NCBI GenBank assembly: GCA_965215565.1
Contig: CBDCDZ010000004.1
Coordinates: 2,624,001-2,688,000 of the forward strand
DNA from: Trueperaceae bacterium
Lineage (GTDB): Bacteria; Deinococcota; Deinococci; Deinococcales; Trueperaceae
DNA: 64,000 nt
Direction: 5' to 3'
Under the pieces are notes generated by a model, which saw only the letters and a list, made by a program, of their open reading frames with translations, was not told where the DNA came from and made no database searches. How positions within the stretch are numbered: position 1 is the stretch's first letter; each line of letters begins with the position of its first letter. Below, in pieces: positions 28,099 to 54,458 of this stretch. Both the position numbers and the translations under genes were made by a program.

Positions 28099-29223
28099 TT
28101 ATAGTCCACGCATGGTGAACATGTGCGCGAACACGCGCTTAGCAGGTGTTCGCAAAATGCCACGTAACCCAAAATCTCGGAGCGGCGCGAGCTTCGTCCC
28201 GCGTCCCATTATGGTGTTGAATTCGGCGCGAAGAATCGCAGCTTTGGCGGCGCGGCGGCGGGTCTGGCTGTAGCGTTCTAAAGAGGTCTCGAGCCCTTCG
28301 GTCTCGAGCGCGTCTGCTAACGCCCAAGCGTCCAACCAGCCCAAGTTCATCCCCTGTCCACCAATCGGGCTCACCACGTGCGCCGCGTCCCCTGCTATTG
28401 CGATTCGCCCTGCGGCGAACCTCTTCGCCAAGTACCGCTCCACGCCGAACGCGCTCAGCATGGTGTTCGTTTCAGTGGGGACCTCAACGCCTAACCTCTT
28501 ACGTACGGCGTCCGTCAAATCTTCCGGTGTAGGACTTTCTAATAGGTGCGGCATCTTTACGACCCAGCGCCGCACCTCATTCGGCAAGGGAAACGATTCG
28601 ATGATGCCGTCCGGGGTCAAGTAGAGCGCCGCGTGAGACCCTAAATCCGTGAGGTCAGCGAAGTCGCCCATGAGGTAGGTGTCGGGGTAGCGCCCGCCCT
28701 TAAAAGGAATCTTCGCTGCTCCTCGCACCACGCTGTTTTTGCCGTCGCAGCCGATGACGGATAGGGCTTTCAAGATTCGCCTTTCCCCGTCAAGTTCGCA
28801 CGTCACCTCGGCGTAGTCTCCTCTATCTCGAACGTTCAGGACGTTCGTCCGCCGCCACAGCGCACCGGGGCGAAGCGTACAGAGGTGAGTTTCTAAAAGG
28901 TTCTCCGTCACGTACTGCGGTAACGTGAGGACGAACGTGTACGGCTCCGGGCAGAGTGAAAAGTCGAGTTCGCCCAAAGGTTTAGAGCAGCCGAACGCGA
29001 GTCCTTTTTTGACCTTGACCCCTTCTGCTAAGAGGTCAGCCACCAGCCCAAGTTCCTCGAACCTCTCCAAAGATGGCGGATGAATCCCGATGGAGCGCGA
29101 GTGCTGCAAGGGCTCCGCGTGCTTTTCTAAAACGATAAAGCGGAGCCCCAACTGCGCCAAACGGCACCCCAAAAAGAGCCCGACAGGTCCGCCCCCGACG
29201 ATGACCGCGTCAAGCATCGCCAT
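28099..29223 (-). CDS. FAD-dependent monooxygenase
   Basis: GGGPVG, GCDG, GDAAH...GGQGMNLG. Confidence 0.92.
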   Translation of the reverse strand: MAMLDAVIVGGGPVGLFLGCRLAQLGLRFIVLEKHAEPLQHSRSIGIHPPSLERFEELGLVADLLAEGVKVKKGLAFGCSKPLGELDFSLCPEPYTFVLTLPQYVTENLLETHLCTLRPGALWRRTNVLNVRDRGDYAEVTCELDGERRILKALSVIGCDGKNSVVRGAAKIPFKGGRYPDTYLMGDFADLTDLGSHAALYLTPDGIIESFPLPNEVRRWVVKMPHLLESPTPEDLTDAVRKRLGVEVPTETNTMLSAFGVERYLAKRFAAGRIAIAGDAAHVVSPIGGQGMNLGWLDAWALADALETEGLETSLERYSQTRRRAAKAAILRAEFNTIMGRGTKLAPLRDFGLRGILRTPAKRVFAHMFTMRGL

Positions 29224-29920
29224 CTCGAATCAGCAAGAGGTGAAAGGGAAACGTGCGTTCGGCGCGCCAGCCTTGCGTTTCGGTACCTTGTACAACCTCT
29301 TGTAACTCATCCCTCGTGAAGCTCCGCCGGATGGAGATGAGCCCGTCGTGTGCGATAAACGAGCGGTGAAAAAAGGGTAGGGCGAGCGCGGCAAAGCCCG
29401 CGTAGGCGAAGTCAGCGCGTTCTAAGTCTTTGTGGACGACGGGACCCCGGCTGAGCTTCGCGCTCTCGCGGCAGATAGTTTGGACCTCTTCCGCCGAGAG
29501 GTGATGTAGAAGGTGGTTCGAGGTCACGAGGTCGAAGGTCTCCCCTGCTCGCAAGAGGTCAGTCGTCGAGACGCACCGAAAGGTGACGTTTTCGGGATGA
29601 GGTTGTGACCGTGCGTAAGAGATAGCGCGCTCGTCCGGGTCGATTGCGGTAATCGTCAGATTGATTCTGTCCCTTGCCGCCCACTTCGCCACCCTTCTCG
29701 GAATGTCACCCCCACCCGAGCCAACGTCTAAGAGGTGTGTATGGCTTCTAGTAGCGGCGAAAGGCAGGATGAAGCGCCTGTAAACCTTGTCCCAGCCCGA
29801 TACCAAAGCGTTGACCGCACCGAACTGCGCGTAAGTGTTGCGCAGCTTTTCCGGGTCACACTCGGAGTCGTCCATCTTCTCGCGCAAGTCCGTCTCGCGC
29901 TGTCGCAAAAAAAGTGGCAT
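29210..29920 (-). CDS. SAM-dependent methyltransferase
   Basis: LLDVGSGGG, NHLLHHL; clustered with the type III PKS. Confidence 0.9.
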   Translation of the reverse strand: MPLFLRQRETDLREKMDDSECDPEKLRNTYAQFGAVNALVSGWDKVYRRFILPFAATRSHTHLLDVGSGGGDIPRRVAKWAARDRINLTITAIDPDERAISYARSQPHPENVTFRCVSTTDLLRAGETFDLVTSNHLLHHLSAEEVQTICRESAKLSRGPVVHKDLERADFAYAGFAALALPFFHRSFIAHDGLISIRRSFTRDELQEVVQGTETQGWRAERTFPFHLLLIRDGDA

Positions 29921-30044
29921 CAGGTGACGAAGCGGTTAGCCAAAGCTTTTAGCTAACGGCTGATAGCCCTATCGGTAGTGGTCCTAAACCGAACGCCACC
30001 GTGTGATCCTTCTGCTGTCTCCACGTGACGAACGACACGTGATA

Positions 30045-30070
30045 AACAAGGGATTGCAACCCCTTGCTTC
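30045..30070 (+). repeat. REP-like hairpin family B
   Basis: AACAAGGGATTGCAACCCCTTGCTTC. Confidence 0.8.
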
Positions 30071-30128
30071 AGGGCCCGTGTCATTCCAGATAAAGCCACT
30101 ACCGCCCCATCTACTAAAGACCCAACCT

Positions 30129-31220
30129 CTAACACGCTGTAAATAGCCCACTCTCCACCGTCAAGCCGGGACCGAACGCCATCGCGCAGACTGACTCTCT
30201 AGGCTGCGCGCGCCGCATAATCTCTTTGAGGACGAAGAGCACGGTGGCGCTACTCATGTTGCCGTAGTCGTGCAGGGTTTGTCTCGAGGGCGTAAGCTGA
30301 CCCTCGCTCAGCGACAACCCCTTTTGAATCTTGTCCAAAATGGCGCGTCCACCTGGGTGAATCGCCCAGTGCTGCACTTCGTCCGGTGTTCTGCCGAGAG
30401 AGGCAAAAAGCGGCGTGAGCGCAGCTTCTAAGTTAGCCTCCAAGATGTTCGGCACGTAGCTCGAGAGCACAATATCGAAGCCGTTGTCCCCTACCGTCCA
30501 CGCCATGTCCGCTTCGCCCGTGGGGGTCAGCGTGGTCTCGAGTTGCGACAGCTCCAGCACCCGCTTATCCTCTCGCGGACGCCTCGCGCTCACGAGTGCG
30601 CCCGCCGCCCCGTCCGCGAAGACCGACGCCGAGAGCATCCGGTCCATATCCGCGCCGAGTTGGAGGTGCAGCGTGCAGAGTTCTAAGCAGACGATCAAAA
30701 CCACCGCGTTCGGGTCCGCCTCACAGAACGCCCGTGCCATCTTGAGGGCTGGAAACGCCGCATAGCAGCCCATAAAGCCGACGTGAAAGCGCTGCACGCT
30801 CGGGCGCAAGCAGAGGTCTTTGACGACAAAGAAGTCCGGTCCGGGCGCGAAAAAGCCTGTGCACGACACGGTGATGACGTGCGTAACGTCGTCGGCACTA
30901 AAGTCCGAAGCGTTCAAAACCTTTCTCGCTACGTCCGTATAGAGAGGTTTCGACGCCTCCGCGTAGAGGTCGTTACGCACCTTCGTCGAGGGCGACTTAA
31001 AGGCGTTGGTCGCCGGATTATAGAAGAGCCCTTCGGTTGCATCTTCCGTAAAGTCGTGGACGACGCTGTGACGCTTCGAGATGCCCGACTGCGAATAGAG
31101 TCTGTGGATAAGCCGCTGCGTCAACCTGTCGTCCGTGCTCGCTTTAAGCGCGTCCCTTGCTCTGTCTTGCAGAAAGTAGTTTTCGGGAACAGCCGTTTCG
31201 ATGGTATGAATCAAGGTCAT
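30129..31220 (-). CDS. Type III polyketide synthase (chalcone synthase-like)
   Basis: Cys-His-Asn triad in GFMGCY, IHPGG and YGNMSS; FGPGLT. Confidence 0.95.
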   Translation of the reverse strand: MTLIHTIETAVPENYFLQDRARDALKASTDDRLTQRLIHRLYSQSGISKRHSVVHDFTEDATEGLFYNPATNAFKSPSTKVRNDLYAEASKPLYTDVARKVLNASDFSADDVTHVITVSCTGFFAPGPDFFVVKDLCLRPSVQRFHVGFMGCYAAFPALKMARAFCEADPNAVVLIVCLELCTLHLQLGADMDRMLSASVFADGAAGALVSARRPREDKRVLELSQLETTLTPTGEADMAWTVGDNGFDIVLSSYVPNILEANLEAALTPLFASLGRTPDEVQHWAIHPGGRAILDKIQKGLSLSEGQLTPSRQTLHDYGNMSSATVLFVLKEIMRRAQPRESVCAMAFGPGLTVESGLFTAC

Positions 31221-31406
31221 AGGTTCCTCTTCTCAACTTTAAGCCGCCTGCGCGTGACGCTTATGAGCCCTAGCGCACGGTGCGAAGGGTGATAGGCTCA
31301 GTGTAGTTCAAAAACCGACGAGCAGGAACGCAGCATATGACGCTTGCGTTAAGCTTTGAGGTATAGGCTGCTGTACTCGTATGTGAATTCGAAAGAGGAG
31401 GGCAAG

Positions 31407-32774
31407 ATGGCACTTATATCCACCAACCCAGCTACCGGCGAAGAGGTCGCGCGCTTTGAAGAGATGTCTTCAGACGAGGTTAAAGACATCACCGAACGCG
31501 CCTACGAAACGCACCGGGCGTGGCGCGAGGTAAGTTTTGAAGAGCGGGCGAAACGTTTGAACGAGGCGGCAAAGATTTTGCGCGACGAAACCGAAGACTT
31601 CGCGCAGATTATCACACGGGAGATGGGCAAGCCGATCTCGCAAGCGCGCGCCGAGGTCAAGAAGTGCGCGGGTGCCTTCGACTACTACGCATCGAACGGC
31701 GCGGCGCACCTAACGCCCGAAACCATCGAAACCGACGCGAGCAAGAGCTACGTCACCTACCAGCCGCTCGGCGTTGTCTTAGCCATCATGCCCTGGAACT
31801 TCCCCTTCTGGCAGGCTGTGCGCTTCGCCGCGCCAACCCTCATGGCGGGCAACGCGGGGCTTCTCAAACACGCGGAGAACGTGACGGGCTGCGCCCTGGC
31901 ACTCGAGGACGTGATGAAGCGCGCCGGGTTTCCCGAAGGTTTATTTCGCACGCTGCTCGTGCAAGTCGAAGAGGTCGAGAAGATTTTGGACAACCCCAAG
32001 GTAGCGGCGGCGACGCTGACAGGCAGTACGGGCGCGGGTAAGGCGGTCTCGAGCAACGCAGGCAAACACCTCAAGAAAACGGTACTGGAACTCGGCGGCT
32101 CTGACCCCTACCTCATCTTGGAAGACGCCGACTTAGACGCCGCTGTGGAGGCGTGCGCTACGAGCCGCTTGCAAAACAGCGGGCAGAGCTGCATCGCGGC
32201 GAAACGCCTCATCGTCGTGGAACCTCTCGTGGGCGAATTTCAGCGCAAGCTCTTGGAAAAGATGAAAGCGCAGAAGATGGGCGATCCGACCCATGAAGAC
32301 ACCGACATCGGTCCGCAGGCGCGCCCGGATTTGCGCGACGCCCTGCACGAGCAGGTGACTAAAAGCGTGGACGCGGGCGCAACGCTCCTCTTAGGGGGCG
32401 AACTGCCGGACGGTCCCGGCGCGTTCTATCCGCCGACAATCCTCACGGACGTCTCCGAAGGGATGCCCGCCTATGACGAAGAGGTGTTCGGTCCGGTAGC
32501 GGCTATTATCACCGCCAAGAACGATAAGGACGCAGTTCGCATCGCGAACGACACACCTTATGGGCTCGGCGCAGCGGTTTTTACCAGGGACCGGGGCAGA
32601 GGTGAGCGCATCGCCGCCTATGAGCTTCACGCGGGCAACTGCTTCGTGAACGCCTTTGTCAAGTCCGACCCGCGCCTGCCCTTTGGCGGCGTCAAGGAGT
32701 CGGGCTACGGGCGTGAGCTGTCGAAATTGGGGATTCACGAGTTTGTCAACATCAAGACGGTCTACGTCGCTTGA
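31407..32774 (+). CDS. NAD(P)-dependent succinate-semialdehyde dehydrogenase family ALDH
   Basis: [38 protein letters not shown]. Confidence 0.93.
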
Positions 32775-32789
32775 AGGAAATCGCTTAAA

Positions 32790-32821
32790 GGAAAAGGCGC
32801 GCAGCGTAAAACTGCGCGCCC
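32790..32821 (-). terminator. Intrinsic terminator ending the array (between convergent genes)
   Basis: GGCGCGCAG-(loop)-CTGCGCGCC with a U-tract on the minus strand. Confidence 0.75.
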
Positions 32822-32840
32822 ACCTCCGGTTGGGAGGATT

Positions 32841-33140
32841 TTAACGTTCAGTATGGAACGTTTTGCCCTCGAGCATGTACCCAAGAAGCTTCATCGTGAG
32901 CATCGGATCGAGGCTGCTCTCCGCCCGCTCGAAAGCGACGAGAGTTCTGTCGATCAGCGCGACGAGTTTCCCCTCACGCAGTCCGAGAATTTTGATAGTT
33001 CTCGCCGCGGGGTCAAGCTGCTGAGAAGGCCCAGTAAGCTCAATGATATCGGTGATATCGAACCCCTCGAGACCGCCTGAGTACTCGAGCACAACTGAGA
33101 GCTTTTGCCCTTCGATAAGGGCGGTTGGTACTTTTGACAT
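32841..33140 (-). CDS. Array protein 1, uncharacterised ~99 aa beta-rich protein
   Basis: MSKVPT...DIIELTGPSQ...KILG...FERAES...GKTF; own -10 box, 5' hairpin and RBS. Confidence 0.75.
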   Translation of the reverse strand: MSKVPTALIEGQKLSVVLEYSGGLEGFDITDIIELTGPSQQLDPAARTIKILGLREGKLVALIDRTLVAFERAESSLDPMLTMKLLGYMLEGKTFHTER

Positions 33141-33266
33141 GCTAGTTCCACTACTAAACAATAAACACCCGTAGGTGCCCCTAGAGCTTAGCAAGGTTAA
33201 GACAAAAAGGTCAGGACAACCAAAGAAAAACGCACGACTTACCGTCGTGCGTTTCGGTCGCTCAGC

Positions 33267-33590
33267 TTACGCTTTGACAACCTTAAACGTCTCATTCTGA
33301 TGTGCCTCTAAAACATCCAGCACGCCAAGGGCGGCGTTCTGAAGGTTTTGGACAGACCGAAACTTGATGCAGCGCCCCGCTTGGTCTTCTAGTACCAAGC
33401 ACTGCGCTTCGGGAAAATTAAAGTTTCCCTTGCTCCACCCCAATACTTTGAGCGTATCCGGGTTTTGAAGCGGCATATTAGGCTCTAGCGCCCGCACCAC
33501 TTCGATGACTTCGGCGTCGTTTTGTACAGTGATCAGGTCAACCCATACGCCACGCGCTGCGTCACCTCTAACAAAGGCTATTCTTTTCAT
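33267..33590 (-). CDS. Array protein 2, 107 aa
   Basis: VDLI...EVVRALEP...KVLG...FRSVQNL...NETF. Confidence 0.75.
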   Translation of the reverse strand: MKRIAFVRGDAARGVWVDLITVQNDAEVIEVVRALEPNMPLQNPDTLKVLGWSKGNFNFPEAQCLVLEDQAGRCIKFRSVQNLQNAALGVLDVLEAHQNETFKVVKA

Positions 33591-33723
33591 TTCTTCATTT
33601 ACTTGTATTACAGCGTCCCTGGTGAGGACTCTGGCAGCCTAACAGAATCAGCGAGGACCGTAAACACTAAGAAAAAAGACGCTCAACGAGAAGTTGAGCG
33701 CCCGCGAAGCCTAAACGGAGAGT

Positions 33724-34038
33724 CTAAGCTTCAAGACCTGGAAAAGAAATTCCACGGTACTTCAAGCCGAGTTGATACGGTGACCGCTCAACTCTCGAAA
33801 AACCGGAAAACGCACGCGCAAAGGTAATGTGGTAGCCTCCGCGCCCAAGGGTAAACCCTTGGTTGTCATATGAGCCCAAGATTTCAAAACCTCTTACGAG
33901 AGATTCAAAATCTATCTTTCTATCAGGACCCTGGAGAATCAGTATCTCCATAAGGTTTACCTGACCTAAGCCCGAAAAGGTCAGTTTGACCTCTTGAGCG
34001 GGCTCATTTACCTCAATACCTCTAATAATTTTACTCAT
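33724..34038 (-). CDS. Array protein 3, 104 aa
   Basis: IEVNEPAQEVKLTFS...EILILQGPD...GFEILGSYD; clear paralog of protein 5. Confidence 0.8.
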   Translation of the reverse strand: MSKIIRGIEVNEPAQEVKLTFSGLGQVNLMEILILQGPDRKIDFESLVRGFEILGSYDNQGFTLGRGGYHITFARAFSGFSRVERSPYQLGLKYRGISFPGLEA

Positions 34039-34246
34039 GTTTCTTTTCCAAATAACAACAATGTCCCTGTTGAGGACTCCCCTAGCGTAGCCGAGGCGAA
34101 GAGGTGGCGGGGCGCTACTACTCCCTTTTCTCAGTATTGGGCGCACAAGAAAACCGCTCACAGCGCCCTCTTCACCTCTATGTTGACGCTTTAGATTCTC
34201 GCCAAAGAAAAACGCTCGAGTCTGTACTCGAGCGCTGCATGTCCTA

Positions 34247-34275
34247 TTGACATATATGACCTAGCGGCATACAAT
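34247..34275 (+). promoter_or_regulatory. Sigma-70 promoter TTGACA-N17-TACAAT giving a leaderless higB mRNA
   Basis: GTG start 7 nt after the -10 box; imperfect palindrome TATG...CATA between the boxes is a candidate HigA operator. Confidence 0.85.
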
Positions 34276-34281
34276 GCGCTT

Positions 34282-34593
34282 GTGAATGTCCTCACGCCTG
34301 GTGCACTTCGCATGTTCTGGACGAAGCACGCTGAAGCGGAGGTGCCTCTCAAGGTGTGGTACAAGGACGTTCGTAAGAGCCGCTACTGCAACCTCACCGA
34401 GCTGCGACGCACCTATCCAAGCGCCGACCTCGCAAAGGCAGAAGATGGCAGCGCGCTTACAATATTCAATATCGGCGGCAACAACTACCGCTTAGTCACC
34501 TACATCAGCTACCCATCTCAGCGCGTCTACATTCGTAAAATTATGACCCACAAGGAGTATGACCGATGGAACAGCAGGGGACGGCCAACCTAA
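34282..34593 (+). CDS. higB: HigB family toxin
   Basis: FWTKH, YPSAD, IFNIGGNNYRLV, THKEYD. Confidence 0.93.
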   Translation: MNVLTPGALRMFWTKHAEAEVPLKVWYKDVRKSRYCNLTELRRTYPSADLAKAEDGSALTIFNIGGNNYRLVTYISYPSQRVYIRKIMTHKEYDRWNSRGRPT

Positions 34594-34994
34594 CCCAAGA
34601 TATCGTAAGCGCATGGGGCGCGTTTCAGTCTCGCGCTCACCTGACTCGTCCCGAGAGTGAAGCCGACTACGCGCGGCTCGTCGCGCTCAGTCATCACCTT
34701 ATCGACACGCACAACTGCGACGAGGAGCCCTACACCTCTCTGCTCGACCTCATAGGAACGTACATGCTGGCTTGGGAAAAAGCGAACGAGCCGCCTATAG
34801 AAGACGCCACACCCGCCCAAGCACTCGCGTTCTACATGGAGCAGCAAGGCGTGACGCAGTACCAGTTGGACAAAGAGGGAGTAGCACCCCAAACGACGCT
34901 GAGCCGCATCCTTTCGGGCGAACGCGGCGTCAGCAAAGCCCTCGCCAAGCGCCTCGCCGAACGCTTCGAGGTGAGTGTAGAGATGTTTCTCTAG
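34566..34994 (+). CDS. higA: HigA family HTH antitoxin
   Basis: C-terminal HTH QTTLSRILSGERGVSK...LAERF, downstream of higB. Confidence 0.9.
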   Translation: MEQQGTANLTQDIVSAWGAFQSRAHLTRPESEADYARLVALSHHLIDTHNCDEEPYTSLLDLIGTYMLAWEKANEPPIEDATPAQALAFYMEQQGVTQYQLDKEGVAPQTTLSRILSGERGVSKALAKRLAERFEVSVEMFL

Positions 34995-35079
34995 CCTCGC
35001 CTATACTGACCGCTTAGATGCCCGCCAAAGAAAGCGCTCGAGTACAGACTCGAGCGCTACCAGTCACAAGGTGGTAAGC

Positions 35080-35397
35080 CTACACGACCGTAAATTTAGT
35101 GCCGCTCCCCAATCGTAAGGAGATGCTGACGGCATCCTCCTTGGGACGCTGCAGGCTCCGCGCCTGCAAAAAGGGTATCACCTGCCCCTCGATGTTGAGG
35201 CAGAGGTGCCCGAGGTAGGCACCCGCCACGCTCACCGTGACGCGGTTCCCGTTCGGCGTTTTGTCGCCTACAGGGAACGAAACCGGCTGGGACGGTCCAA
35301 CCAGCTTAATGACCTCTTCAAGTTGGTAGTCATCCCGCAAGATGACTAAATCAACTCTTTTACCCCCGTTTTTCATGCGGGCAATTCTTACCACCAT
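35080..35397 (-). CDS. Array protein 4, 105 aa
   Basis: RVDLVI...EEVIKLVGPSQ...FLQARSL...GTKF. Confidence 0.78.
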   Translation of the reverse strand: MVVRIARMKNGGKRVDLVILRDDYQLEEVIKLVGPSQPVSFPVGDKTPNGNRVTVSVAGAYLGHLCLNIEGQVIPFLQARSLQRPKEDAVSISLRLGSGTKFTVV

Positions 35398-35692
35398 GCT
35401 ACTTTTCCTCAACTAAACAATATCCCTGGTGGGGACTACCCCAGAATAGCGCAATGAAAGAGGTCAGCGGAGCCTAAAGCGCTCCTATCCGCGCATTGAC
35501 CTCTTTGATTCTTACCCGCAAAAAAGAAACACACAACTGTAAAGTCGTGTGCTCCTGTAAACCTAAACCGTTCGTTTAGGACTTATACGGATTCCGCTTA
35601 ATTCCTTATCACCGAGAAAGGCGCTCGGTGATAGTCCATACCGCTTCATCCGTATATTTCTTCTCATTCGCTACGCTCAGATTGATTAAGAA

Positions 35693-36058
35693 TCAATCGG
35701 AATTCGTATTAGAAGACGGAAAACGCAAGCGGTGATACCTCTTCGCGAGTTCGCAGGGCGACTCCGCTTTCCACAGATCAGAGTCGGCAGAGCCAAAGGT
35801 GACGGCAAAGGCGGGAAAGTCACCTTCGTTTAACCCGGTCTCTTTAGAGAAGTTGCCCAGGGTTAAACCCTTGCCGTCAAAACTTCCCAATATCTCGAAC
35901 CCTTCGGCAAAGAGGTTGTAAGTTACCTCTTTGTCAGGGTTGCAGAGCGTCAACTTCTCTACGGTAGAGACTTTGCGCTCTGACGAAAAGGTCAGTGTCA
36001 CCTCTTGAGTGACGAGGTTCACCTCGACGTTCTTGATGTCTTCAAATTTTATTTCCAT
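35693..36058 (-). CDS. Array protein 5, 121 aa
   Basis: VEVNLVTQEVTLTFS...EKLTLCNPD...GFEILGSFD. Confidence 0.8.
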   Translation of the reverse strand: MEIKFEDIKNVEVNLVTQEVTLTFSSERKVSTVEKLTLCNPDKEVTYNLFAEGFEILGSFDGKGLTLGNFSKETGLNEGDFPAFAVTFGSADSDLWKAESPCELAKRYHRLRFPSSNTNSD

Positions 36059-36338
36059 GTTGCTTTCTTACGTATGGTTATCTATCTCTGGTAGAGACAC
36101 CTTCAGTTTAACCTAACCAAAGAGGTCAGCAGCGCCTAAGATGCACGGCTTCTCGCTTTATTGTTCAGCGCAACCTTCGTAACAGAATCTAGCGAAGACA
36201 TCTCTAACTCACATTGACCTCTTAGATTCTTGCCTGCAAAAGAAAAGAAACACACAACTGTAAAGTCGTATGTTTCAAGTACCTAGAGGGTAAGTCTAGG
36301 ATTTAGTAACTACCTAAGCGGGTAGCTTAGGATTTCGT

Positions 36339-36650
36339 TTAGTCGAGGAATTCGTATTCCTCTTTGACGAAACAGTGTTCCCGGTATTCCGAAAACAAAT
36401 TTTCTGTGCTCCAGTCCTGTCGGAGACGACAGCTCTTTATAGCCGTGACCTCAACATATCTGGACTGGTTCCCCAAAATCATGGACCGAGGTCCGTAATT
36501 AAGCCTGGTCAAGCTGAATCCATCCATCCCTTTCAGGAGACTTTTTTGTTCACTACTTAGAGCAATGAACAATACTTCCGACAGATTAGCTCCATTAACG
36601 TTAAATGTTAACACGATACCATTTGGGGCAAATTGTACTAGTTTCTTCAT
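36339..36650 (-). CDS. Array protein 6, 103 aa (most diverged)
   Basis: IVLTF...EVLFIAL...GFSL...HCF; same promoter/hairpin unit as the others. Confidence 0.7.
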   Translation of the reverse strand: MKKLVQFAPNGIVLTFNVNGANLSEVLFIALSSEQKSLLKGMDGFSLTRLNYGPRSMILGNQSRYVEVTAIKSCRLRQDWSTENLFSEYREHCFVKEEYEFLD

Positions 36651-36895
36651 CTTTTTTCCTATTACTTTACTATATCCCTGTTGGGGATTTTTCAGAGTAG
36701 CGGAATTAAAGAGGTTCGCCCATTCTAAAGCTTGCCAGTTTTTGCTCTTATGCTGCTTCTCGTCTACTGAAAGACTCGTTAGAGACGCTTGATCCAAAAC
36801 TATATTGACCTCTTAGATTCTCGCTTACGAAAAAGAGCACGCAGTCCTCAACCACGTGCTCCAAGAGCTTCATTTTCAATTAGCGAACCAACGCT

Positions 36896-37810
36896 TTACT
36901 CTCTCCCCGTCTGCCCCTTATACGTACTCTCAAAAATCTTATCCGCATTCCCCGCCTCAAACCCCTCCCGCCGGTGCTCCCGCCCTACCTCTTTTTTAGG
37001 CAAGTCTCGGTATTCGTCAAGCACGCGCCGCTCCGCAAATTCGACGTAGGAACCCGAAATCTCTCTCGTTTCGCCGCCCGCGAATTCAGCTTCGATCATC
37101 TTCGCGACGGTGGAGCTTTGTAGGAGCTTTTCGTCGGGGCTCACCTTCACTTTGCCGCCCGAGTCGTTGAGCTTGACGCCGTGTGACTCTAAAAAGGTGT
37201 TGAAGCTCGGCACGGTGTCGTAGCCTCCCGGCAGGGTGTGAACGGAGATGGTGAAGTGGTTGAGGTAGTAGCGGTTGTAGATGACCCAGGCGGCGTACTC
37301 GCTCTCGTCGGCTAAGCGTTCGTAATCGGCTAAGCTCGGCAGTCGCCAGAGGGGTGAGTGCAAAAAGGCGTCGACTTGGGCGGCGTCGTCCAGGTCTAAA
37401 TCGTCTACGGGGTCACGTGTGACCTCATCTGTGTACGAGCGGAGGATGCGCTGCGCCTTATCGGAGAGTTCATCCACGCGCAGTTCGCTGATGAAGATGC
37501 GCGGGAAGTGCGGCTCGGGCGGGGCGTACCAGTAGGCGTTGAGTTTCTTGGTGGGAAAGTCGTAGGAATCGCGGCGCGCGTAGCCGTAGTGGAGAAAGAT
37601 TTTCTCCAGCGAGCCGATGCCCAGATGCGCGACGCCGAGGGTGCGAAAGGCGATGTGGTCATTTTGGATGTCGCTGGGCTCACGGATGACCTCTTCGCGA
37701 ATCATCGCCTGGACGATAGTCTCTACGTCGGGGACGCGCGCGCTGTAGCGGCGCATGAGACCGTCTAAAACGTGTTGCAGCGTCTCGAGTTTATGGGTGG
37801 TTGCAGGCAT
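36896..37810 (-). CDS. DUF1338 family protein (2-oxoadipate dioxygenase/decarboxylase-like)
   Basis: NDHIAFRT, PRIFISEL, ESEYAAW, NHFT, LLQSST, YVEFAER. Confidence 0.88.
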   Translation of the reverse strand: MPATTHKLETLQHVLDGLMRRYSARVPDVETIVQAMIREEVIREPSDIQNDHIAFRTLGVAHLGIGSLEKIFLHYGYARRDSYDFPTKKLNAYWYAPPEPHFPRIFISELRVDELSDKAQRILRSYTDEVTRDPVDDLDLDDAAQVDAFLHSPLWRLPSLADYERLADESEYAAWVIYNRYYLNHFTISVHTLPGGYDTVPSFNTFLESHGVKLNDSGGKVKVSPDEKLLQSSTVAKMIEAEFAGGETREISGSYVEFAERRVLDEYRDLPKKEVGREHRREGFEAGNADKIFESTYKGQTGRE

Positions 37811-38052
37811 GGCAGCTCCTTACACAAATGCAGTTAAAGCTACGATACCTCCGAGAGAAAGGTGTGTCCAGCGGTGTACGTAAGTTCGAGAGGTCATCTT
37901 CAGATTTTGCCTACGAAGGGAAGGTTGAGCTTGAAACGAAAAACCGCTTTGTAAGTAGGAAGAAGTCTCGAGACCTCTTCTCACGCCCAAAAAAACGAAA
38001 TGATTCTAAGTTGAGTGTTGCCACGTACCCCTTTTGCCACCTCAACGTGATG

Positions 38053-38078
38053 AACAAGGGGTTTCAACCCCTTGCTTC
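38053..38078 (+). repeat. REP-like hairpin family B
   Basis: AACAAGGGGTTTCAACCCCTTGCTTC. Confidence 0.85.
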
Positions 38079-38157
38079 AACATCATTGTCAAACTACGCA
38101 GCGCTACTGTCCAATAAAAAACCGCCCGGAGGCGGTTTCGTATGGGTAGAGGGTGTA

Positions 38158-38760
38158 TCAGTTGCTTTCGCCGCGCACTTGCTCCAACATCCCACCTAGC
38201 TCGTCGTAGATGCGTTGCAACTCGCTCAGCGTGGCGTCGTCTACGTTCATCGCGCCGTCTGACGTGTCGGACTCGAGGCGCGTAATGAGCGTGCCCAAGT
38301 CGCTATAGCTGCTCACGAGTTCACCCAGGTCACCCGGTGTAGACGAGGACATCGCGCCGCCCGTCATGTCACCACCCGTCATAGTACCTCCGGTCATATC
38401 ACCGCTAGCCATGTCGCCACCTGTTACGTCGCCACCCGACATGTCACCGTTCGGACCCGTCATGCTCGCCGCGTCGCCGCCTGAGAGGTCGCCGCCTGTC
38501 ACGTCATCCGCGCCGCCAGCAATTCCGTCAACCGTTGCGCCGCCCGTCATGCCACCTGTTGTAGCGCCGCCCGTCGTGCCCCCCGTAATGTTCTCGGCTG
38601 CCTCTAAGTCGCCTCCGGTCATACCGCCCTCCCCGACGAGGCTACCGCCAATTTGGGTTTCGCCCCCGGTCGTATCGCCCCCGGTTGCGCCGCCCGTATC
38701 CTGCGCGGAAACGAGACCCAAGATAATAAGCACGGCTAGAAGAACGCTGACTGATTTCAT
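38158..38760 (-). CDS. Secreted low-complexity protein with (D/A)xTGG repeats
   Basis: Signal peptide, many TGG/SGG units, short helical C-terminus. Confidence 0.75.
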   Translation of the reverse strand: MKSVSVLLAVLIILGLVSAQDTGGATGGDTTGGETQIGGSLVGEGGMTGGDLEAAENITGGTTGGATTGGMTGGATVDGIAGGADDVTGGDLSGGDAASMTGPNGDMSGGDVTGGDMASGDMTGGTMTGGDMTGGAMSSSTPGDLGELVSSYSDLGTLITRLESDTSDGAMNVDDATLSELQRIYDELGGMLEQVRGESN

Positions 38761-39021
38761 ACAATTGCCCCTTTCAAGACGTTCGTGCAGTTCAAAGTTA
38801 TGGGAAAAGAGTTGAAACGAAGAGGTGCTGGGGCGCTCGTCACCGATTTGAGATTTGCCCAGCGCACCAAAAAACTACCCCCGTAGACTTCAGTTTGTTC
38901 TTAGGCTAAGGGAACAATGTGAGATATTTTGCATTTGAGATTACGATTGGGTTTCATTAAGTTGAGGTTCCGCCGGCGTTGAAGCTTTAGGGACATCAAG
39001 GCTCGAGGGGCACCAAAAGCT

Positions 39022-40450: not shown

Positions 40451-41773
40451 TCACTCTAACGCCTCTTTGAACATCCCACCAGGTTGAAAGTAACGCACCG
40501 CCAGCGTCACCACGCGCACGCCCATGAGCGCGACGATACCCCACCACACGCCCGCCAAGCCTAAGCCAAGAGGCACGACGAGAAGTAAAACGAGCACCGC
40601 CGCCACTGCTGAAATCACCATCGCCCTAGCGAGATACGCAAAGTCCTCCGCGCCCATGAATATCCCGTCCCACACAAAAACAAGCGCGTTCAAGGGCTGC
40701 ATAAAGACGACAAAGGGAAAGACCGCGAGCACGAGCGCAATAACCTCTTCGTCTCCCGTGAAAAGTCGCGGCAAGTAAGGTGCGAGCAGCGCGAAGCCGA
40801 CGCCGAGGAACACGCCGACGCCCGAACCCCATACGAGCAAGCGGTTGGAGACCTCCCTTGCCGAATTCGCGTCATTCTCCCCCAAATACTTCGCCACCAA
40901 CGCTTGCGCCGCAATCGCCAGCGCGTCCACCACGAGCGCCAAAAAGAGCCAAAGCTGCGCGGCGACTTGATGCGCAGCAACCTCCAAGACGCCCACCCGC
41001 GTCGCCACCGCCGTCGCTAAGGTCAGCGTGCCGATGAGCGCGAAGGTGCGCACTGCAAGCTCCCAACCGATGCGCAGAAAGGGGCGGAGTTCGGCGAGGT
41101 TAGGGAGGATGAGGGGTATCTCGAGCCTCTCCCGCTGCTTCACCAGCAACAGCCACACAAACCAGAGCGCTCCCACCCACTGCGCAATGACCGTCGCCCA
41201 AGCCGCGCCCGCCAAGCCCCAGCCGAAGCCAAAGATGAACAAAGGGTCGAGGACGAGATTCACTAGATTGAGCCAGAGCGTAATCACAAATGGCGTCCGC
41301 GTGTCCTGATAGCCCCGAAACGCCCCGTTGCCCGCTGTGATGAGGAGCAGTGCAGGACCCGCCAGCGCACGAATCCGCAGGTACACGAGTGCAGGCTCCC
41401 GCAACCCCTCATCCGCGCCCATAAGGGTGAGAATCGGTACGGCGAAGGCTTGCAGGAGGATGAGCGCGAGAGCGCCCACGATGAGCGCCAGCGTGAACGC
41501 CTGCACCACCACGCGCCCCGCGCCCGCCCGGTCTCCCCTACCGATGGCGCGTCCTATCATCGGGGTGGTGCCGTACGCCAAGAAGTTAAAGACCACAAAC
41601 GCGAGCGAGAAGACCGAGATGTTGACGCCCAGCGCGGCTAAGGGCGTTGCGCCCAAGCGCCCGACGAAGGCAGTGTCTACCAGGGAAACGATGGGGTCGG
41701 CGGCGAGTGCGCCCAAGGCGGGGAAGGCGAGGGCGAAGATGGCGCGGTCATGTTTGTGGAGTTGAAAGGTCAC
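40451..41773 (-). CDS. MATE efflux protein (DinF-like)
   Basis: DTAFVGRLG, RGYQDTRTP, multiple TM helices. Confidence 0.92.
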   Translation of the reverse strand: MTFQLHKHDRAIFALAFPALGALAADPIVSLVDTAFVGRLGATPLAALGVNISVFSLAFVVFNFLAYGTTPMIGRAIGRGDRAGAGRVVVQAFTLALIVGALALILLQAFAVPILTLMGADEGLREPALVYLRIRALAGPALLLITAGNGAFRGYQDTRTPFVITLWLNLVNLVLDPLFIFGFGWGLAGAAWATVIAQWVGALWFVWLLLVKQRERLEIPLILPNLAELRPFLRIGWELAVRTFALIGTLTLATAVATRVGVLEVAAHQVAAQLWLFLALVVDALAIAAQALVAKYLGENDANSAREVSNRLLVWGSGVGVFLGVGFALLAPYLPRLFTGDEEVIALVLAVFPFVVFMQPLNALVFVWDGIFMGAEDFAYLARAMVISAVAAVLVLLLVVPLGLGLAGVWWGIVALMGVRVVTLAVRYFQPGGMFKEALE

Positions 41774-42402
41774 TTATTGGACTGTAAACCGACAGCGACG
41801 AGACCAGGTAACATTGTTATTGACTGGATGTTTGTTGAGAGAGAGCTCTTCAAGGTTTCTGGTAGAAGAAACACTGCACTTCTGCGGAGGTCATCAGCAG
41901 AAATTGAGTCTGCGTTAAAAATTCCAGACGCTTCTTCACCGATGAGTCCCAGACGGAAGGGAACTGATTGGAATACCGATGAGCCTATCGAAGCGAGGAT
42001 TTGATTAACTTCGTGCATCCACGGATTTGTGGCAGAAGATAAGGGATAGTCAACGGAATAAACAAGCCCCAGCATTCCAGTGGGTATACAAAGGTCGAGC
42101 CAATCTGCTCCGTTATCATCACTTTCGCGAACGACAATGCTCTCACAGCCAACTTGCAGACCATGACCTAATGTAAGAATTCCATGCCTTGGTAACTCGA
42201 CTTCACCAACAATTTTAGTTAGAGGTGGAGAAGTCTGAAAGTCATCTCGATCAGTCCACGAACCGTGAAGTTGAGGATGTGCCCAAAGACTATTAAGTGC
42301 TCTTAGGAGACGTTCGTCATCACCTTTTGGTCCTAACTCGAGACAAAGTTCATAGTACGAGCCGTACCAATTCTCTTTCTTCGTAAAAGTTTCACGGTTC
42401 AT
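41770..42402 (-). CDS. Hypothetical protein, lower GC, possibly immunity-type
   Basis: WYGSYYEL...DWLDLCIP...GLIGEEAS; stop overlaps the MATE start. Confidence 0.65.
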   Translation of the reverse strand: MNRETFTKKENWYGSYYELCLELGPKGDDERLLRALNSLWAHPQLHGSWTDRDDFQTSPPLTKIVGEVELPRHGILTLGHGLQVGCESIVVRESDDNGADWLDLCIPTGMLGLVYSVDYPLSSATNPWMHEVNQILASIGSSVFQSVPFRLGLIGEEASGIFNADSISADDLRRSAVFLLPETLKSSLSTNIQSITMLPGLVAVGLQSNK

Positions 42403-42409
42403 ATTTGAT

Positions 42410-42628
42410 CTACGCACCTAATAAGCATTCAAATAGAATACCTCTTCTCAACCTCTCGAGCCCTCCTACGACATCGCAGCAGAGGTATACCAAAAACACC
42501 AATACCGACATACATTCTGAGTCCAGAACGAAGAGGTCCGCACTCTCGACTGTGCCGCCCCACTCAGCGTATACGTTCCAAAGTGTTTCGATGTCTTCAG
42601 CAGCCGAGTCGGTGATGCAAAAGGTCAC
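42410..42628 (-). pseudogene. Truncated ParE/RelE toxin
   Basis: N-terminus ITDSAAEDIETLW is ParE-like; similarity is lost after ~35 aa; follows a ParD-like gene. Confidence 0.6.
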
Positions 42629-42912
42629 TAGTACGTGTCAGGTTCACGTTCAGCGCGGCGCTCTTTTATGTGGGTAAGTAGCTGCCGCGCAAACGCCTCA
42701 GCCTCTTCCGGCGTGCTTATCTTCGTTGAGCGTCCAGCGTCAGCTGCGTCAATACCCTCTTGCACTCGAGCACGAATTTCGGCGGTGCGTTCTTGATACC
42801 TTTGCCACAAGTCCAGAGCGTGAGCCACTACTTCGCTCTCGTCTGAGTATTCCCCTGTCTCCAACTGCTCGTCCACAAAGCGCCGCTGCTCAGGGGTGAG
42901 GTCTATCGTCAT
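42628..42912 (-). CDS. ParD-like (CC2985-type) RHH antitoxin
   Basis: LTPEQRRFVDEQLETGEYSDESEVV. Confidence 0.85.
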   Translation of the reverse strand: MTIDLTPEQRRFVDEQLETGEYSDESEVVAHALDLWQRYQERTAEIRARVQEGIDAADAGRSTKISTPEEAEAFARQLLTHIKERRAEREPDTY

Positions 42913-45166: not shown

Positions 45167-45598
45167 TTAGATAGGTTGATTTCTGATAACTAGACCGAGC
45201 TTTTGAGCCTCCTCTTTGTTTGCTTCTATCCAGTCATGACAGGAATCGCATATACCCAGAAAGTATTCAGGATTGTTATACATGTCCACATCGTTTACAG
45301 GTCGACGACCTCGCCTGTGATGAATCTGAGTGGCAATCCGCTGATTACTAAAGCAAGAAGTCTCTCTTAAAGTAGCTTCGCAGCGAGGAAATTCTGGTGG
45401 GCTCAGGTGTTGAAGTTTTTCCTGTAAAGTCTCTCCAGGAATATCACCAAAAGAACGCTTTAGATGATTCTGACGCTGAGCCAGATTTAATAGGTAAAGA
45501 GGGCGTTCCACTTTACGATAACGTTGATCTTGGCGCTTACGGTACTCACGCTCTTCAGGGGTAAAGGTACGCTTGGTTTTTGCTCTTTCAGGCAACAT
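45167..45598 (-). CDS. HNH-like (His-Me finger) endonuclease between dnaA and oriC
   Basis: CE...C...QIHHRRGR...GICDSCHDWIE. Confidence 0.72.
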   Translation of the reverse strand: MLPERAKTKRTFTPEEREYRKRQDQRYRKVERPLYLLNLAQRQNHLKRSFGDIPGETLQEKLQHLSPPEFPRCEATLRETSCFSNQRIATQIHHRRGRRPVNDVDMYNNPEYFLGICDSCHDWIEANKEEAQKLGLVIRNQPI

Positions 45599-52737: not shown

Positions 52738-53310
52738 TTAACGAGTCACAAGCGTTTTTTCTATTTCGTCAAAGATTCCAAATGGTGGTGTTCCGTAAGC
52801 TGCCCGCCACTGACCTCTTAAAGCAACTTGCGGATTTAACTTTGTTGCAGCTTCCATAATTGCTTGAGTTACCTCTTTCTGATTCCTCAAGAAAGAGGTG
52901 AAGAGCGTGGTATGCCGCCCCTGACCTTCAACCACAAGGGCAACGTTGTAGCCTCCAAAATAGTTCATGAGTACCCAAACCTCTTTGACTTGATGCCACT
53001 CTATACGCTTCTCGCTCCATGTACCTTTTCTTCGAAAGTCAGTCAAGTTTACTAAATATTGAGATGAAAATAGAGAAAGAGACAGATACAGCGCCCAAAT
53101 GAAAAAGGGAAGCATTAAAGCATGTGGTAAAACTTCAAAACTCCCCAAGTGTAAGCTCTCAAGGGTCATGTACAATCCACCTATACCCATTACAAATATG
53201 AGGGCTAATTGTAGAGATTTAAAAATACCTTTCTTCGATGTTACGGTTTTCATTACATTTTGACCTTTCCCTATTCTTATAGTGCTATCTATTCTGAGGG
53301 CTTTTGACAT
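52738..53310 (-). CDS. Hypothetical membrane protein (2 TM + PH-like domain), low GC
   Basis: Two hydrophobic segments, then KRIEWHQVKEV. Confidence 0.6.
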   Translation of the reverse strand: MSKALRIDSTIRIGKGQNVMKTVTSKKGIFKSLQLALIFVMGIGGLYMTLESLHLGSFEVLPHALMLPFFIWALYLSLSLFSSQYLVNLTDFRRKGTWSEKRIEWHQVKEVWVLMNYFGGYNVALVVEGQGRHTTLFTSFLRNQKEVTQAIMEAATKLNPQVALRGQWRAAYGTPPFGIFDEIEKTLVTR

Positions 53311-53906: not shown

Positions 53907-54458
53907 TCAGAAAACTACAACTGTACTGTCTTTTTTCACTGCACAAGGCCAATGCCCTTGCTCGTACCAATCGAACAAATCCAGGAAAAAGCGGTCATTC
54001 GAGAGGTCTTGAAGGATGATTTCGTCTAAGGCTCCTTCTATATCAACAAATAAAGCAGCTTTAACTGTTCCTCTAACCCCTTGAGGAATAGAGAGAGGTA
54101 CGTATTCGTTGTAGAGGTCAAAAGCTGCGTCCGACAAGGTTTGAAGACCGTGCTGTTTGATCAGGCTTCTACGAATCTCGAACTTATTGTCTATTAGCGC
54201 AATGGTTCCCTCGAGTGATACTTTAATTGCTGAATCCCAGTCCTCAACTCGATCAATTTTCCCTCTACTTTGCTCTTTTATAGGTTTACCGATGTTTGCG
54301 AAGAATTTGATGGCTTCCAAACGCTTCACGAACACTTCAACCTCATGACCGAATTTGCCCAAACGCTCTATCAATACGTCTCTCTCGGGTATTTCGCGGT
54401 TTAACTCGGCTATAGCTCGCTCTATGAGGTCTTGTGGTAGATCATCGTACTTACCCAT
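53907..54458 (-). CDS. Hypothetical protein, probable orphan immunity-type protein
   Basis: IKFFANIG...WYEQGHWPC C-terminal motif; lower GC. Confidence 0.6.
   Translation of the reverse strand: MGKYDDLPQDLIERAIAELNREIPERDVLIERLGKFGHEVEVFVKRLEAIKFFANIGKPIKEQSRGKIDRVEDWDSAIKVSLEGTIALIDNKFEIRRSLIKQHGLQTLSDAAFDLYNEYVPLSIPQGVRGTVKAALFVDIEGALDEIILQDLSNDRFFLDLFDWYEQGHWPCAVKKDSTVVVF

Follow-up and report, generated by a model that had tools for sequence, protein, structure and literature searches.

A lineage-specific array of six small-gene units in homologous terminator-promoter-leader frames, with an embedded higBA pair, on a Trueperaceae chromosome

A 4.1-kb insertion between ALDH and HGLS

The window analysed here, 64,000 nucleotides (nt) of Trueperaceae bacterium contig CBDCDZ010000004.1 (positions 2,624,001 to 2,688,000; assembly GCA_965215565.1), carries a row of six small minus-strand genes, each with its own terminator, predicted promoter and leader. 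The host contig is a 4.39-Mb chromosome contig, with the array at 2.66 Mb, ∼9 kb from dnaN and dnaA. The array is flanked by a plus-strand aldehyde dehydrogenase (ALDH) gene and a minus-strand HGLS gene (DUF1338; Pfam), and is low in G+C (50% against 56–59%). We numbered the units U1 to U6 from right to left, starting at the HGLS side; they correspond to proteins 6 to 1 of an earlier, sequence-only reading of this DNA.

The array amounts to a 4.1-kb insertion specific to this lineage, made up of six units whose terminators, promoters and leaders are homologous. That reading had proposed comparing the ALDH–DUF1338 interval among relatives, and in both congeners the ALDH–HGLS junction is empty, with the ∼4.1-kb stretch absent. 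The row is not the uninterrupted tandem array that had been described, as a plus-strand higB–higA pair (34282–34994) sits between U3 and U4. The locus is real and more complex than first supposed, with a new protein family in an architecture that is unusual, though not unprecedented. A copy of a dispersed ∼130-nt repeat within the array is a passenger outside the unit design; it represents one of three kinds of short repeat (35582–35712, ∼30000–30105 and ∼38000–38090) with many copies in the genome and in both congeners.

The units share terminators, putative promoter boxes and leader hairpins

Scanning gave 17 terminator-like sites, compared with 4.6 ± 2.1 in shuffles, and eight of these, on the minus strand, bound the units. 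The eight align with one another and are the top eight genome matches of their own profile; the ninth match is the terminator of a cold-shock gene. Two terminators had been singled out as near-identical, and the repeat concerned (35522–35551 and 36243–36272) agrees at 97% over 30 nt. The terminator of the cold-shock protein gene (C4:4229463–4229490; L018 6240–6290) is nearly identical to both hairpins around higBA, and ∼20 further bases beside it resemble the start of the left arm described below. This likeness raises the possibility that a host terminator gave rise to the unit boundary. Between the U1 stop codon and terminator T2 (36277–36338) there are also two hairpin units of 31 nt in tandem, which are 71% alike.

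A TAnnCT box is present in all six units. Some 5–6 nt further on, a purine opens a small hairpin 38–40 nt before the start codon, so that the common frame of terminator, box, hairpin and leader noted earlier is found throughout (box and leader length in 6/6). The position of this purine places the presumed start of transcription at the hairpin, and six monocistronic mRNAs, each beginning with a 5′ hairpin, are predicted. Such a hairpin would give the mRNA a protected end and stabilise it. The −10 box occurs in 6/6 units and a conserved −35 hexamer is absent from all six; in Deinococcus deserti, too, promoters as a rule have a −10 box but no widely conserved −35 (PMC4007540). Coupling between terminators and promoters has been reported to be common (10.64898/2026.08.19.745784), which makes the frame alone less surprising.

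In U1–U5 the hairpin has a 5-bp stem in which all 25 cells are paired and which carries two two-sided changes, a result reached by 61/500 shuffles. An origin as a solitary CRISPR repeat or CRISPR-like leader RNA was rejected: all that the hairpin has in common with the resident type I-E repeat is the base of the stem, the 8-nt handle is absent, and U2 alters both sides of the stem. The genome does have a type I-E-like CRISPR-cas locus (C4:4338580–4350500), with two short arrays whose repeats differ slightly.

Directly after the terminator in U1–U4, and once more after U3, lies a conserved left arm that complements a right arm in the promoter spacer. The pairing of left and right arms exceeded that of shuffles within U1, U2 and U3 (p 0.0005–0.004), whereas in U4 p was 0.53; the left arm is absent in U5 and U6. 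Neither arm occurs elsewhere in the genome or in 127 family genomes, a covariance model of the leader likewise found no further copy there, and Rfam gave no match below E 2 in 31000–39000. A type III toxin-antitoxin (TA) system or known structured RNA was also discarded, with no Rfam match and no ToxN/AbiQ-type Pfam match. The arms may serve as an operator pair, a recombination site or a processing stem.

Five of the six proteins form one family

The six minus-strand open reading frames of 99–121 aa were all present, and the protein motifs quoted for them were found in the translations. We scored pairwise similarity against 1000 shuffles. Significant pairs were U2–U4 (z 30.5), U3–U5 (z 9.8), U3–U6 (z 5.8) and U4–U6 (z 4.6). 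The first of these is the pair (proteins 5 and 3) that had been called obvious paralogs. The other 11 of the 15 pairs were without significance: all five with U1 (z 0.2–2.2), earlier the weakest fit, and six of the ten within U2–U6 (z −0.6 to 2.5). Once homologues were added, U2–U6 aligned over their whole length. HHalign, a check suggested with the original description, gave 95% for U6 against U3/U5, 18% (E 0.0013) for U6 against U2/U4, 0.3% for U2/U4 against U3/U5, and 0.4% for U1. When the genome's 32,164 open frames were ranked with a profile of the U6 subfamily only, U3, U4 and U5 came out as matches 2–4, though at E 0.9–7. U1 scored 3.0 bits on the family profile, equalled by 8/500 shuffles. 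The tree has three deep subfamilies with long branches between them.

By these comparisons U2–U6 are distant paralogs of one protein family with three deep subfamilies. U1 shares the non-coding frame and perhaps a remote ancestry with them, so the claim of six paralogs is supported for U2–U6 only.

The predicted fold of the family is small and beta-rich. Its structure matches, to the DSL-Imm fold (5V77), the PIM7 immunity protein (8OWU) and the formyltransferase C-terminal domain, all fell below the level of a real match; they tie, at 4–12% sequence identity. The family is new and undescribed: the literature, searched without supplements, gave no description of it or of the locus. The lists of DSL-Imm in PMC9424270 could be relevant to the lead on the fold.

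A higBA pair lies between two boundary blocks

The pair between U3 and U4 has the make-up of a HigBA type II toxin-antitoxin system, with the HigB gene upstream of the HTH antitoxin gene and its own predicted promoter. It is bracketed by a direct repeat, two copies of a terminator plus left arm that agree in 54/68 columns (counted by hand). This is the footprint expected of entry by recombination at that block. In a congener (G001:C1:3963000–3970000, L009), a higBA homologue stands by a CRISPR array, a WYL-type regulator and another TA pair, without a surrounding paralog array.

Table 1. Features of the array in window positions (predicted +1, predicted start of transcription)
Feature	Position	Strand	Basis or remark
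Terminator T1, between upstream HGLS gene and U1	36834–36862	−	terminator scan
Left arm of imperfect inverted repeat, U1	36803–36826	−	also 36212–36235, 35494–35517, 35004–35027, 34181–34204
U1 right arm, box 36694–36699, predicted +1 36688, 5′ hairpin, A-rich leader	36651–36718	−	start inferred
U1, 103 aa, orphan, frame as in other units	36339–36650	−	metagenomic orthologue P0007 at 70%
Terminator T2, near-identical to T3, preceded by two short hairpins (36277–36338)	36247–36276	−	
U2 right arm, box 36105–36110, predicted +1 36098, hairpin with two-sided change, leader	36059–36129	−	
U2, 121 aa, subfamily U2/U4	35693–36058	−	open reading frame, shuffle tests
Copy of dispersed ∼130-nt genomic repeat	35582–35712		other copies in genome and both congeners
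Terminator T3	35525–35556	−	terminator scan
U3 right arm, box 35443–35448, predicted +1 35436, hairpin, leader	35398–35467	−	
U3, 105 aa, subfamily U3/U5	35080–35397	−	open reading frame, shuffle tests
Right-hand direct-repeat copy (terminator and left arm), brackets higBA	35001–35065	−	
Terminator in right-hand copy	35033–35058	−	terminator scan
higA-type HTH antitoxin, 142 aa	34566–34994	+	Pfam HTH_3 E 9e-8; orthologues 94–95% in two metagenomic contigs
higB toxin, 103 aa	34282–34593	+	Pfam HigB_toxin E 3e-26
Sigma-70-type promoter of higBA, 11/12 consensus bases	34247–34275	+	promoter scan
Left-hand direct-repeat copy (terminator and left arm)	34178–34243	−	
Terminator in left-hand copy	34211–34236	−	terminator scan
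U4 right arm, box 34084–34089, predicted +1 34077, hairpin, leader	34039–34108	−	
U4, 104 aa, subfamily U2/U4	33724–34038	−	model pLDDT 84.9
U5 short frame without left arm, including T5; box 33636–33641, predicted +1 33629	33591–33703	−	
Terminator T5	33677–33703	−	terminator scan
U5, 107 aa, subfamily U3/U5	33267–33590	−	open reading frame, shuffle tests
U6 short, most diverged frame, including T6; box 33185–33190, predicted +1 33178	33141–33255	−	
Terminator T6	33227–33255	−	terminator scan
U6, 99 aa, third subfamily	32841–33140	−	model pLDDT 90.2; mosaic alleles in relatives
Last terminator, facing convergent ALDH gene	32795–32821	−	terminator scan

Relatives are rare and U6 alleles are mosaic

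The U2–U6 profile matched none of 363 other genomes of the phylum, and U1 none of 127 family genomes. When U4 was run without an index against 1.84 billion representatives, there were four matches, of which three are true relatives. In total 18 metagenomic proteins were found, one of U1 type and 17 of the family. Linkage on metagenomic contigs was judged from the proteins' contigs being equal in size, not from DNA. On this measure, contigs of 15,736 nt (U1, U2, U3, HigA, U5, U6, HGLS), 10,078 nt (U2, HigA, U5, U6) and 9,378 nt (U5, U6) carry the members named. The missing U4 is uninformative, since the collection lacks U4 even from the present genome (two starts tried). A public run labelled marine metagenome held low-depth pieces of U6, U4 and higA at ∼90%. 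Judged by these contigs, the unit set is stable within one lineage.

Divergence along the 15,736-nt contig is uneven: U1 (70%) and U6 (78%) lie well below HGLS (96%), U5 (96%), HigA (94%), and U2 and U3 (92%). The six U6 alleles are mosaic, with loop 22–28 occurring in two forms, each on two backbones, and of 190 informative pairs 83 are incompatible with one tree. Such a pattern speaks for recombination between strains, with recurrent mutation the less probable source of change in a six-residue block. One low-depth contig (depth 2.2) joins 36833 to 34227, although the joint is ambiguous.

Resemblance to known gene arrays

In the way it would work, the array is like the PeSL cassettes of T4-like phages (Arbiol 2010, PMC2839356; Comeau 2014, PMC4122927), and in appearance it is like the homogeneous polyimmunity loci treated below, but it lacks defining features of both. 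In PeSLs, repeated intergenic blocks combine a terminator stem-loop with a promoter and a ribosome site, small ORFans stand in rows of insulated units, and exchange occurs by recombination between blocks without a known dedicated recombinase; recombination between neighbouring elements forms mini-circles. By sequence, a composite element of this type is present between the small ORFans of the array. PeSLs, however, have a sigma-70 promoter with conserved −35 and −10 elements 17 nt apart and lie in hyperplastic regions of T4-like phage genomes (PMC2839356, PMC4122927), whereas the array lacks a conserved −35 and is part of a bacterial chromosome. The array also differs in that its genes are paralogs of one family, that an additional hairpin coincides with the predicted +1, that the long leaders contain a pair of inverted repeats and that a TA pair is embedded.

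Homogeneous polyimmunity loci (Zhang 2012, PMC3482391) are likewise tandem, co-oriented distant paralogs of one small family (here U2–U6), with no cognate polymorphic toxin and with differences between close relatives. They have short spacers, are thought to be polycistronic and are not interrupted by a toxin gene, whereas the array has spacers of 126–295 nt with terminators and is interrupted by higBA; the families in them are known as immunity families and a XerC/D gene often adjoins them (PMC3482391), while the family here is one that we do not recognise, with no recombinase next to the array. The rAID-1 orphan immunity arrays of Bacteroidales (10.1101/471110) are also rows of small genes in one orientation, low in G+C and with motifs that recur between the genes, but the array (0.50) does not reach their absolute G+C cut of 41% and lacks the 5′ XerD-like recombinase and known-immunity homologues that define them. 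No tyrosine recombinase lies by the array: of six PF00589 genes, five are at 0.37–0.44 Mb of the chromosome and one is on contig C1. The missing adjacent recombinase rules out rAID-1 identity.

A CALIN does not require an integron integrase. In this genome TIGR02249 gave at best 59.5 bits against a cut-off of 265, and a strict attC pair (inverse core ... core) occurred in only 1/8 intergenic regions. By the integrase profile and the strict core pattern, this is not an integron array. The array resembles integron arrays and CALINs with TA cassettes (10.1101/2022.08.03.502626) in its small genes, repeated inverted-repeat elements and self-expressed TA module, but differs in having no IntI and no regular attC cores, and in genes that are paralogs, each with its own predicted promoter and terminator.

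Interpretation and alternatives

We propose that an ancestral insulated unit was duplicated several times, probably as a whole unit, and that the copies specialised long ago. HigBA would have entered via the boundary block and would now counter-select deletions that span it, guarding the array from recombinational loss. The terminator-plus-arm blocks may act as crossover points, as PeSLs do, and strains probably swap alleles, mainly at the array ends, by ordinary homologous recombination. The units would encode non-enzymatic binding proteins of orphan-immunity or decoy type that neutralise incoming toxins or phage proteins, each paralog with its own ligand. Units that are each expressed separately and steadily would be well suited to pre-emptive protection, which favours such proteins. 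Weighing against this, the fold evidence is weak, the range is narrow and no toxin neighbour was found. We give the account as a whole a probability of roughly 0.4. Its architecture and mode of growth are probable; the neutralising role is tentative. The interpretation offered in the sequence-only reading is partly borne out.

The proteins could instead be OB-like small nucleic-acid-binding proteins (RNA chaperones or regulators), each binding a hairpin like that at the start of its own mRNA and controlling its own translation, which we consider unlikely. Capture of a phage or plasmid early region, with units of PeSL or moron type that would encode products directed at other mobile elements or at the defences of the host, is distinctly unlikely: it would account for the low G+C, the absence from congeners and a layout of stem-loop terminator, promoter, ribosome site and small ORFan like that of PeSL cassettes (PMC2839356; PMC4122927), yet no relative was found in IMG/VR, PHROGs, BFVD, INPHARED (U6 query only) or PLSDB (U4 query only), the interval has no phage, plasmid or transposase gene, and the unit terminators resemble a host terminator.

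The inverted arms could also be single-strand recombination sites of a new type, with the units as cassettes of an integrase-less array that a distantly encoded recombinase moves. The arms pair above chance in U1–U3 around a spacer of variable length, an attC-like geometry; higBA is inverted, with its own predicted promoter and a direct repeat on both sides; the genome holds six tyrosine recombinases; and the low-depth joint of 36833 to 34227 would fit. But no integron integrase exceeded the cut-off, the nearest chromosomal recombinase is >1.7 Mb away, the single strict core pair is made by a terminator stem, the arms are unpaired in U4 and incomplete in U5 and U6, no arm copy occurs elsewhere in the genomes searched, and duplication explains genes that are all paralogs in the family. 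We regard this as quite improbable. Very improbable is a cluster, old and fixed, in which specialised paralogs fill a niche role in physiology, with no repertoire logic and a frame inherited from the ancestral unit. U2, U3, U5 and HigA equal the flanking HGLS in conservation (90–100%) and the subfamilies are separated by long branches, as such a cluster would have it, but the divergence of U1 and U6 far exceeds that of the flanks, the U6 loop alleles have recombined, and separate terminators speak against one complex or pathway.

If the proposed duplicated, higBA-locked array of neutralising proteins is correct, a bacterial chromosome would be seen to build a gene repertoire in the manner of phage PeSLs, with a TA pair as the lock, and the known specificity scaffolds would gain a small fold that is predicted with confidence and has no clear match. 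Each unit is small and self-contained, which makes cloning easy; the reach is limited to one narrow lineage, and the functional role is a proposal. A bolder version, which we judge improbable, is an integrase-free chromosomal cassette system: a bank of decoy or immunity genes with a new fold, each expressed on its own and the whole locked by the TA pair, with whole units moved through the terminator-plus-inverted-arm boundary, possibly by a recombinase from afar, and specificity retuned by swaps of surface loops between strains.

Other features of the window

Three stand-alone ORFans without a Pfam match lie near the origin (41770–42417, 52738–53310 and 53907–54458), two of which we take to resemble orphan immunity proteins. 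A 143-aa open reading frame without a Pfam match is inserted between dnaA and dnaN (45167–45598) and presumably has an HNH-like motif. At 42410–42912, a ParD-like antitoxin (Pfam E 0.003) is followed by a short, possibly broken partner frame. The secreted low-complexity protein at 38158–38760 has Thr-Gly-Gly repeats and no Pfam match. Finally, a type III polyketide synthase, a methyltransferase and an FAD monooxygenase stand in a row at 28099–31220, forming an ordinary small biosynthetic cluster.

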